Of a stretch of 11,769 nucleotides of DNA, positions 4,033-6,568 are shown one piece after another; the stretch's first letter is position 1, and every line of letters begins with the position of its first letter. The position numbers and the translations under genes are program-made. The notes beneath the pieces were generated by a model. It was not told where the DNA came from. It was given only the letters and a program-made list of their open reading frames with translations, and searched no databases. The stretch lies in IMG/VR virus record IMGVR_UViG_2693429700_000006. One strand, given 5' to 3'. Source of the stretch: a virus (lineage: Duplodnaviria; Heunggongvirae; Uroviricota; Caudoviricetes).

Positions 4033-4707
4033 TTAGGCCTTTATTGTGTATCTTCTTGGTTTTCCCGAGAAAATCACTGTACCAATTATAGAGCAATTAC
4101 CGTTAATCTTAATGTAAGGCTCAGGCCAGTTTGGGTTTAATGCTTTGAGATAACGCTGTGTTCCATCTTCTATCAATCGCTTGAAGGTGGTTTCGCCTGT
4201 ATCGTGCATCAATGCAATAACGTCGTCACCGTGGCAGGCAGGGACTTCGGGATCAACAAAAATCATGTCTCCAGGGCGGTACTCATCAATCATTGAATCA
4301 CCAATCACCCGCAAGATATAAGTCATTTCGCCACAGGGTACAGGGCAGGGATACGTTTCTGCTGTGCTCAAATCAACCTCAGAATAGCCAACTTCTTTCC
4401 ATGCTCCGGCCTGTACCCATGATATGACAGGGACTAACGTTATTTGTTTGTTAGTGATTGAAACATCAGGTTTTTTTGTGATGTTCGTTGTCTGGTGTTC
4501 TTGATCAAGCCATCCGACAGGCAGGTCGAAACATTTTTCGATGTGCCGTGCCATGCTGTCACCGATATTTTTAGTAGCGCCATCCCCCATAAACCTGCTG
4601 GTCTGGGTTGGCTCGCGATCAATCATGGTGGCAAAGGATGAATTTCCGCCAACACCATCTCTCAGTTTTCTGGCGTTAGACCGCCGGATGTCATGGATTG
4701 TTTTCAT
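4033..4707 (-). CDS. CI-like prophage repressor, LexA/S24 peptidase family (N-terminal HTH, C-terminal autocleavage domain), 224 aa
   Basis: C-terminal S24 signature with catalytic Ser in VIGDSMIDEY and a downstream Lys (TFKRL). Divergent from a Cro-like gene with operator palindromes between them. There is no good SD, consistent with a leaderless pRM-type transcript. Confidence 0.85.
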   Translation of the reverse strand: MKTIHDIRRSNARKLRDGVGGNSSFATMIDREPTQTSRFMGDGATKNIGDSMARHIEKCFDLPVGWLDQEHQTTNITKKPDVSITNKQITLVPVISWVQAGAWKEVGYSEVDLSTAETYPCPVPCGEMTYILRVIGDSMIDEYRPGDMIFVDPEVPACHGDDVIALMHDTGETTFKRLIEDGTQRYLKALNPNWPEPYIKINGNCSIIGTVIFSGKPRRYTIKA

Positions 4708-5029: not shown

Positions 5030-5593
5030 ATGAGGCTAACCGTGGGTAAGCATCACTGGAAAGTAGAAAAACAGCCTGAGTGGTACGTGAAAGCTGTCAG
5101 AAAAACTATCGCAGCGTTGCCGGGTGGTTACGCTGAAGCAGCTGACTGGCTGGATGTAACAGAGAACGCATTATTTAACCGCCTTCGTGCCTATGGCGAT
5201 CAGATTTTCCCGCTGGGATGGGCAATGGTTTTACAGCGCGCGGCTGGCACTCACTACATTGCGGATGCTGTCGCACAGTCTGCTGGTGGGGTGTTCGTAT
5301 CGCTTCCTGAAATTGAGGAAGTAGAGAACGCCGATATAAACCAGCGCCTGCTGGAAGTCATTGAACAGATCGGCAGTTATTCAAAACAGATTCGTTCAGC
5401 AATTGAAGACGGTGTAGTGGAACCGAATGAGAAGACAGCAATTAACGACGAGCTGTACCTCTCAATTTCGAAGCTGCAGGAGCATGCAGCACTGGTCTAC
5501 AAAATTTTTTGCATTTCAGAAAGTAATGACGCCCGCGAGTGTGCAGCTCCGGGCGCCGTGGCGTGTCGTGACTGTGGAGAAACTAACGCATGA
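5030..5593 (+). CDS. Putative CII-like / YdaT-like lysis-lysogeny regulator, 187 aa
   Basis: Placed immediately downstream of the cro-like gene as in cro-cII and ydaS-ydaT pairs. Family assignment is from context and weak recollection only. An alternative GTG start at 5042 with GAGG upstream is possible. Confidence 0.5.
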
Positions 5594-5768
5594 ACAGTTT
5601 AACAACACACTACCGTCGCTCGCAACTGATTGCGCTTCCTGTACCGGGTGGAAAAGCGAAGGTGGAGTATTGCTATGCAGTAAATGTACCAGGTGACAGG
5701 GAAATTGTAACCCACAGCTTTGCAGAGTGGGCTGTGGGTGATTTCAACCGGCAGAAGGAGACAGTCCT

Positions 5769-5948
5769 TTGCGACAAGTTAACCGCTGGTTCAAAGATCA
5801 CTACGGAGTGCCCGTCAGAGTCATTCGTTGGGAGCCGGAAACACAACGGGTTATCTACCTCCGCGAAGGCTATGAGCATGAGTGCTTCAGCCCGCTCGAA
5901 CAGTTTCGTCGTAAATTCAGGGAAGTAGAGGTCGGTCATGAGCACTAA
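5769..5948 (+). CDS. Small ORF (59 aa, TTG start) hidden below the 60-aa ORF-track cutoff; alternatively the C-terminal half of a frameshifted gene starting at 5590
   Basis: AGGAG at 5755..5759 lies 9 nt before the TTG. The translation looks protein-like ([59 protein letters not shown]). Its stop overlaps the start of the next gene as ATGAGCACTAA. Confidence 0.35.
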
Positions 5949-6276
5949 ATTAACCGGCTATGTATGGGATGGTTGCGCTGCATCAGGCATGAAATTATCC
6001 AGCGTGGCAATTATGGCCCGCCTGGCTGATTTCAGTAATGACGAAGGTGTGTGCTGGCCATCAATTGAAACCATTGCCCGTCAGATTGGCGCGGGGATGA
6101 GTACCGTCAGAACGGCTATCGCACGGCTGGAAGCAGAAGGCTGGTTAACGCGTAAGGCGCGTCGCCAGGGTAACCGCAATGCGTCGAATGTTTATCAGCT
6201 TAACGTTGCGAAGCTTCAGGCAGCGGCATTTTTTCAACTGTCAGATTCTGACCCGTCAAAATTTCTTACCTGCTGA
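5938..6276 (+). CDS. Winged-helix (HTH_36-type) DNA-binding protein resembling the N-terminal domain of phage replication initiators, 112 aa; probably truncated
   Basis: Signature ...WPSIETIARQIGAGMSTVRTAIARLEAEGWL... is typical of the HTH_36 family. Only 112 aa, followed by a 290 bp region with no intact ORF. Confidence 0.6.
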   Translation: MSTKLTGYVWDGCAASGMKLSSVAIMARLADFSNDEGVCWPSIETIARQIGAGMSTVRTAIARLEAEGWLTRKARRQGNRNASNVYQLNVAKLQAAAFFQLSDSDPSKFLTC

Positions 6277-6568
6277 CAAGTGGGTAACGCCACGCATGAT
6301 GACGAGAACTACCGGAGTAAGCGAAGCCAGGTGCCAGTTAATACTGACTCAGTTAGTTCTGGCGGGTCTGGCGAAGGATAACGGCGGGTACGGGAATAAA
6401 TTCAGACGCTGCCAGTAATGGCGGTTTCCTGCTGTGAAAATGGGCGGCTGGTGGGTGTTGGTAGCACCTGCCAGCCATTCGCTCATGCTTACTGGTCACA
6501 AGCGAACCACGGCCCACTGCTTTAGCGCAAAAGCAGAGTGAGCCTACCAGAGTTACGCTTACTGATCC

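Follow-up and report, generated by a model that had tools for sequence, protein, structure and literature searches.

A ymfM gene and a DUF4222 gene very probably overlap out of frame in the early-right operon of a degraded Escherichia coli lambdoid prophage

The 11,769-nt viral sequence IMGVR_UViG_2693429700_000006 (hereafter the window, all coordinates being counted from its first letter) is the immunity and early-right region of a degraded, e14/SfII-like lambdoid prophage of Escherichia coli, and we analysed the segment that lies between its CII-like and replication genes (positions 5590-5948). This segment very probably holds two genuine, co-directional small genes that overlap out of frame within the early-right (PR-type) operon, namely ymfM (gene A; 5590..5928, plus strand) and a gene of the DUF4222 family (gene B; 5769..5948, plus strand). 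Gene A would consist of a conserved core of about 58 amino acids (aa) and a Ser/Thr-rich tail of about 52 codons that is read in the +1 frame of gene B. The substitution patterns described below indicate that the ymfM core and DUF4222 are conserved as proteins and that the sequence of the ymfM tail is not; the overlap appears to be under selection in both frames, with the tail frame displaying maintenance of the frame only and no conservation of residues.

The ATG of ymfM at 5590 overlaps the stop codon of the preceding gene as ATGA (5590-5593), as the initial annotation had noticed, and this stop is the TGA of ymfL. The frame is open for 112 codons, a length that the initial annotation did not mention, and its TAG (5926-5928) lies 10 nt before the replication-gene ATG at 5938, with a GAGG Shine-Dalgarno (SD) sequence in the same short stretch (5926..5940, plus strand). 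The encoded protein is identical to YmfM of E. coli K-12 (b1148) at 110 of 112 residues, occupies the same operon position (ymfK-ymfT-ymfL-ymfM-O) and matches phrog_1170 over its whole length (1-112/112, E 1.7e-70). Its N-terminal core (MNSLTT...AEWAVGDF; 5590..5768, plus strand), on which selection acts at the amino-acid level, has 23 invariant columns among homologs whose identity to the window in this part is 61-100%. Beyond about residue 58 the protein becomes Ser/Thr-rich and of low complexity, in agreement with the earlier remark that the 5590 frame changes character after some 60 codons. A library-wide profile search for this small family returned 111 representatives, which fall into length classes of 58-70 and 108-125 aa together with assorted read-through open reading frames (ORFs). 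Five of the proteins with a gene A N-terminus (P0223, P0227, P0228, P0230 and P0257, 124-387 aa) are such read-through ORFs, running into varied downstream sequence. In the window, ymfM and the replication gene share one reading frame and are separated by the TAG and three codons.

The second frame is open from 5742 to the TAA at 5946-5948 and matches PF13973 from end to end (1-53/53; 69.8 bits against a cut-off of 27; E 1.4e-19); the DUF4222 family also corresponds to phrog_1343. The gene begins with a TTG at 5769, 8 nt downstream of an AAGGAG SD sequence (5755..5760, plus strand), and encodes 59 aa. The initial annotation had listed, among several options, a genuine 59-aa gene missed by the ORF cut-off, and the frame, the AGGAG, the TTG and the overlap with the next ATG that it described are all present; the full-length family match, the Prokaryotic Genome Annotation Pipeline (PGAP) protein WP_001250272.1 placed at exactly these coordinates, purifying selection and a conserved start bear that option out. 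Relative to ymfM, gene B occupies the +2 frame, and ymfM accordingly reads the +1 frame of gene B. The overlap with ymfM measures 160 nt; this dual-coding part (5769..5928, plus strand) corresponds to ymfM residues 61-112 and is recognized by its ratio of nonsynonymous to synonymous diversity (piN/piS) and by frame openness. With the replication gene the overlap is 11 nt, the gene B stop lying 8 nt downstream of the ATG at 5938.

Homologs of the DUF4222 protein are mostly stand-alone proteins of 59-70 aa, with the start codon and the SD sequence at the edge of the domain. The aligned start column contains ATG in three lineages (the Klebsiella type, the Phytobacter type and Morganella), GTG in loci L171-L183 and TTG in the E. 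coli type. An SD sequence precedes it in all five; in most groups this is of the GGAG/GGAGG type and lies 7-8 nt upstream. These features argue that gene B is initiated independently of ymfM, from its own SD sequence and start codon. The AlphaFold2 (AF2) model of the protein (predicted local distance difference test score, pLDDT, 83.8) is a small, Tudor/SH3-like beta-barrel whose last strand comprises residues 51-53, while residues 57-59 have pLDDT <50. The AAGGAG can pair with a CCUUU located directly before and into the TTG (5755-5771), giving a 6-bp hairpin that would mask initiation of gene B unless opened; folding of the 91 nt around the start was no better than that of shuffled sequences (z -1.0), and other groups show no obvious conservation of the pairing. 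Searches of PDB sequences with the gene A core and gene B profiles gave nothing significant, NCBIfam and PADLOC had no match for either product (NCBIfam holds no model for YmfM), and Rfam recognized no family in the window.

To compare the two frames across relatives, loci were collected from species-representative genomes and IMG/VR using the first 57-61 residues of ymfM as the query, with the tail left out; the scan of genome contigs contributed 7 loci, and the diversity came from the IMG/VR scans. Among 52 distinct E. coli-type sequences, a set biased in that it was chosen for an identical N-terminus, all 18 polymorphisms in 5619-5763 are synonymous in the ymfM frame. In the overlap (5769-5927) of the same sequences, 23 variants are synonymous in the gene B frame only, 5 in the gene A frame only and 5 in neither. 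The piN/piS of the overlap is accordingly 0.04 (E. coli type) and 0.10 (Klebsiella type) when read as DUF4222, and 5.4 and 3.6, respectively, when read as the ymfM tail; the ymfM core gave 0.25 in the Klebsiella type, the E. coli-type set being biased as stated. Between the two types, gene B has a proportion of synonymous differences (pS) of 0.74, which is saturated, and a proportion of nonsynonymous differences (pN) of 0.08, and the gene A core has a pS of 0.41. The substitution pattern and piN/piS together place the switch of the selected frame at about 5765-5783.

Although its residues vary, the tail frame is kept free of stop codons. A scan based on gene B and blind to the other frames yielded 145 distinct core sequences in 22 clusters at 75% identity, of which the first 47 core codons were scored. 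The +1 frame was stop-free in 19 of the 22 cluster representatives, and the +2 frame was open in none, with 1-6 stops each. Under a null model that fixed the amino acids of gene B and took synonymous codons from long ORFs of these loci, each cluster had a probability of 0.006-0.21 of an open +1 frame and 2.2 open clusters were expected (Poisson-binomial P=5e-18 if the clusters are independent); empirically, the +1 frame was open in 12% of 53-codon windows from 46 such long ORFs. The invariant Val codons at core columns 15 and 25 of gene B are informative, since the next codon begins with A or G and a purine at the third base would create a stop: each has C or T in 21 of 21 cases, about evenly split, against 45% purines at other four-fold sites, and the remaining stop-capable sites likewise avoid stop-creating codons. 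Lineages in which gene A does not read in (the Morganella type, L263/L269/L275 and L300) have GTG at the Val sites and 3-4 stops. Tail identity between clusters (0.317) is slightly above that under synonymous-codon resampling (0.264), and, measured against this null, the tail has an excess of S and T and a deficit of V, I, F and W, a composition compatible with either a hydrophilic disordered extension or the preference of gene B for C-ending codons.

The layout of the two genes in relatives suggests how the overlap may have come about. In the lineages with a long gene A, the junction codon is TGC (Cys) in place of TGA and gene A runs through the +1 frame of gene B to a length of 112-117 aa; the two-frame layout recurs in diverged homologs, including lineages in which the synonymous sites of gene B are saturated. 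In Morganella (L009), gene A has 63 aa and its TGA overlaps the gene B ATG as ATGA, and DUF4222 without an overlapping upstream ORF occurs in L263, L269, L275 and L300. The last has the synteny repressor (cI)-cro-cII-A-B-O, its gene A (61 aa) and gene B (62 aa) meeting directly as TAAATG. We propose that DUF4222 is the older, residue-constrained frame and that the ymfM tail most likely arose by overprinting. In the ancestral or alternative layout, gene A would end at the start of gene B (ATGA); a change of TGA to TGC at the junction would let it read on, and the frame would then have been kept open, which we infer to mean that ribosomes starting at ymfM must be able to cross gene B to the start of the replication gene. 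Openness might be favoured by translational coupling or anti-polarity for the downstream replication gene, or by a requirement of YmfM for a hydrophilic C-terminal extension independent of sequence, and we consider these two options about equally likely. Most of gene B has been deleted in Atlantibacter (L007, 2001-2230) and Entomohabitans (L008, 2001-2240), where a C-terminal remnant adjoins the replication-gene start and the gene A core is kept (75-78 aa), demonstrating that the two genes can be uncoupled in nature.

Several observations weigh against two functional genes with a maintained overlap. Third-base identity between clusters is 0.367 against 0.271 for random sequence, that is, near saturation and not fully independent, which makes the above P value optimistic; by a rough estimate it would still be very small with about 8 effective lineages. 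Within groups, no stop-creating variants were found against 0.44 and 2.25 expected, a test left powerless because stop-creating changes are all transversions, so that the claim of openness rests on the comparison between clusters. Core-only gene A proteins (59-70 aa) occur in many lineages, and 63-aa frameshifted variants are found in E. coli, indicating that the tail is dispensable in some contexts. No confident AF2 model was obtained for the 112-aa YmfM (pLDDT 44 from a 17-sequence alignment); with this model uninformative, the tail is judged from its composition only, by which it is probably disordered. Two loci, in which openness occurs without read-in from gene A, are explained neither by coupling nor by a C-terminal extension: in L233 (~985-1175) and L256 (~985-1180) a gene A-like gene ends at the gene B start in a different frame, yet stops are still absent from the +1 frame of gene B, which in L233 opens with an ATG of its own (58 aa). 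This arrangement could have arisen by recent rearrangement, or the 'tail' ORF could be translated independently. Finally, a literature search returned no ribosome-profiling or proteomics data on either product.

The initial annotation had favoured a single ancestral gene of about 119 codons broken by a one-base frameshift, and thus a pseudogene or a sequencing error, noting correctly that the span of 359 nt is 2 modulo 3. In-frame fusions of the core with DUF4222 do exist in databases: PF13973 is found in 5 of 92 matches of the ymfM protein search, one of which (P0090) is an unrelated chimera and four of which are fusions (P0030, P0053, P0060 and P0065, 102-119 aa). These fusions are rare, however, with four different junctions, 1-14 members each and single read-set assemblies as their source, and DUF4222 otherwise stands alone. 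A 401-nt stretch of this region is carried by 2606 of 5426 complete E. coli genomes, 677 records match it at >=99%, and at least 9 complete genomes of E. coli have the exact sequence (100% identity); identity across so many genomes excludes a read, assembly or sequencing error. A broken gene is likewise at odds with purifying selection on both parts, with the persistence of the two frames where synonymous sites of gene B are saturated and with outgroups that possess two separate genes, and we regard it as extremely unlikely. As to the outcome by which the frameshift was to be judged, the two segments were found essentially never to form one protein, and the 5590 frame does have a conserved counterpart, ymfM itself. 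A programmed -1 ribosomal frameshift near 5742-5770, which would join the ymfM core to DUF4222 in a product of about 119 aa, had also been raised; the passage from frame 1 to frame 3 is indeed -1, the gene B frame is open from 5742, upstream of the TTG, and the gene B-frame stop at 5739 is missing in some variants. Yet the ymfM frame (5590-5930) contains no X XXY YYZ heptamer, 5700-5800 has no homopolymer of >=4 nt, the junction sequence is not conserved between groups, several of which have gene B-frame stops just before the gene B start, and neither significant RNA structure nor an Rfam match was detected there. Together with the separate SD sequence of gene B and its alternating TTG/ATG/GTG start, this makes a programmed frameshift very unlikely.

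A different possibility is that only DUF4222 and an upstream gene of about 60 aa are functional, the 52-codon tail being accidental read-through. The tail piN/piS above 1 is in line with this, as are the synonymous sites of gene B, on which the overlap has no depressing effect (pS 0.74, compared with 0.41 for the gene A core), the existence of core-only and tail-less variants and the nonsignificant within-group polymorphism test. Chance read-through, however, is expected to decay at saturating divergence, and the +1 frame is open far more often than the null model predicts, with stops present wherever gene A does not read in and Val sites that have turned over between T and C and never to a purine; we therefore consider an accidental tail unlikely. 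The opposite notion, that the 112-aa ymfM is the only real gene and DUF4222 a spurious ORF or Pfam artefact, agrees with the annotations of K-12, SfII and PhiR49_1, which carry the 112-aa ORF alone. It deserves almost no credence: the great majority of substitutions in the overlap are synonymous when read as DUF4222, this frame has a confident fold and a conserved SD sequence and start, and the family exists without an overlapping upstream ORF. Scarcely any weight can be given, either, to the minus-strand ORF of 90 aa (5673..5945) as the coding gene of the overlap. This ORF, which is in codon register with DUF4222, is open in 20 of 22 clusters where 12.5 are expected (19 of 19 against 14.6 given an open +1 frame, P 0.003), an openness weakly above expectation, and it is annotated as a coding sequence in Klebsiella phage MK416017.1 (L298, 467-754). 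Its first codon positions, however, are the saturated third positions of gene B and its protein is not conserved, its stop-to-stop length ranges over 60-158 codons with varying ends and no family match, its openness needs only that gene B avoid the rare codons TTA, CTA and TCA, and its transcription would run against the operon. We judge it a shadow ORF.

The reading as two overlapping sense-strand genes bears on a conflict of annotation. The same DNA has three mutually exclusive annotations across databases: ymfM, DUF4222 and the antisense ORF. K-12 MG1655 is annotated with ymfM only ('cell division inhibitor YmfM'), though the 59-aa ORF is intact there, with its internal TTG at MG1655 position 1,204,001; PGAP genomes have DUF4222 only, and Shigella phage SfII and phage PhiR49_1 the 112-aa ORF only. 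If both sense-strand genes are real, as we conclude, a conflict affecting thousands of enterobacterial genomes would be resolved.

It also flags a confound in the work that names ymfM as the long-sought sfiC, an SOS-inducible inhibitor of cell division. DNA carrying ymfM is reported to cause loss of the FtsZ ring and filamentation and to account for SfiC, in experiments in which the ymfM 'open reading frame' was cloned into pBAD24 and ymfM was also deleted (Ansari et al., bioRxiv 10.1101/2020.11.19.390815). The filamentous genomic clone D1-8E spans ymfL(142-185)-ymfM-ymfN(1-92) (Burke et al., PMC3614548). A clone of the ymfM ORF includes the SD sequence, the TTG and 53 of the 59 codons of gene B, which is nearly all of the modelled fold; the genomic clone contains the whole of gene B, and deletion of ymfM removes gene B too. 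Since the clones and deletions that define SfiC thus carry or remove gene B, the inhibitor of division could be the product of long gene A, of its core or of gene B. In silico, each of the single substitutions C5772A and C5775T disrupts one frame and leaves the protein of the other unchanged. The CI-like repressor of e14, presumably YmfK, was put forward as the likely controller of ymfM, as a suggestion only (Ansari et al., bioRxiv 10.1101/2020.11.19.390815).

We advance tentatively, as a possibility that may well prove wrong, that SfiC activity needs or resides in the nested DUF4222 protein and, separately, that the stop-free tail is a translational device and not a domain. If so, ymfM ribosomes would cross DUF4222 and so arrive at the replication-gene start, or would gate the initiation of DUF4222, and selection would act on the openness of an ORF instead of its product. 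In our literature search, no paper turned up that connects ymfM with ribosome profiling or with an overlapping gene, and the portions of the literature that it reached held no description of a DUF4222 overlap with an upstream +1-frame ORF. Within that scope, the conserved, long out-of-frame overlap with openness-only selection and the SfiC ambiguity appear to be new, both genes being individually known. The locus would offer a natural example of overprinting in which one frame is conserved in its residues and the other as an open frame, with non-overlapping sister lineages for comparison, and could serve to study how overlapping genes arise and what selection on 'openness' means.

The neighbouring genes are in the order ymfK, on the minus strand, ymfT (cro-like), ymfL (CII-like), the A/B region and an O-like replication gene. 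The ymfK gene (4033-4707, minus strand) encodes a LexA/S24-type repressor, and ymfL (5030..5593, plus strand) a CII-like regulator recognized by Pfam Phage_CP76 (E 5.5e-14), by NCBIfam phage_reg_YmfL (167 bits against a cut-off of 90) and by PGAP. The O-like gene (5938..6276, plus strand) encodes a helix-turn-helix protein (HTH_36, E 7e-12) shortened to 112 aa; the intact relative has 313 aa, and the closest genome flags the gene as 'incomplete; missing C-terminus'. Alignment with the intact relative L001 extends to 6262 and resumes at 6433, with about 5.5 kb missing in between, comprising the rest of the O-like gene, PerC/yfdN, a LexA-family gene, RusA, KilA-N, DUF968, the antiterminator Q and a NYN gene. 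This deletion leaves the prophage without its replication and late-regulation module. A truncated ORF for the terminase large subunit (11047-11685) is another mark of degradation; some 50 nt further along, the closest genome has the start of a transposase of the IS3 family (IS1203-like) with a programmed frameshift.

Compared with known systems, the closest is ymfM of the K-12 element e14 (b1148), which has the same ORF and operon position and is treated as a single gene in published work; the window prophage is related to e14 but distinct from it, and has degraded separately. The DUF4222 family has no described function, and the window protein is the identical accession with a full-length match. 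Small prophage or phage division inhibitors include lambda Kil, Rac KilR, Qin DicB and T7 Gp0.4 (Ansari et al., bioRxiv 10.1101/2020.11.19.390815). The product discussed here resembles them as an early prophage product of about 60-110 aa that is reported to block Z-ring formation when expressed; it differs in that no sequence or family relation to them was found and it has no known target. Tailed phages also possess programmed -1 frameshift pairs of the lambda G/GT type, which likewise involve two frames related by -1 in a region of small phage genes. Unlike them, the A/B pair lies outside the tail module, lacks a slippery heptamer and has an independent, conserved second start. Overprinted phage genes are also known in the MS2 lysis gene, in phiX174 E and in lambda Rz/Rz1, where Rz1 lies embedded within Rz in its +1 frame. 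The A/B pair shares with Rz/Rz1 a lambdoid origin, two co-directional genes in different frames and an inner gene with its own SD sequence and start codon. It differs in that gene B extends 20 nt beyond gene A, and is therefore overlapped and not fully embedded, and that no functional partnership of the two genes is known; above all, the overlapped part of the outer gene appears to be free of amino-acid constraint and to be kept only free of stop codons.

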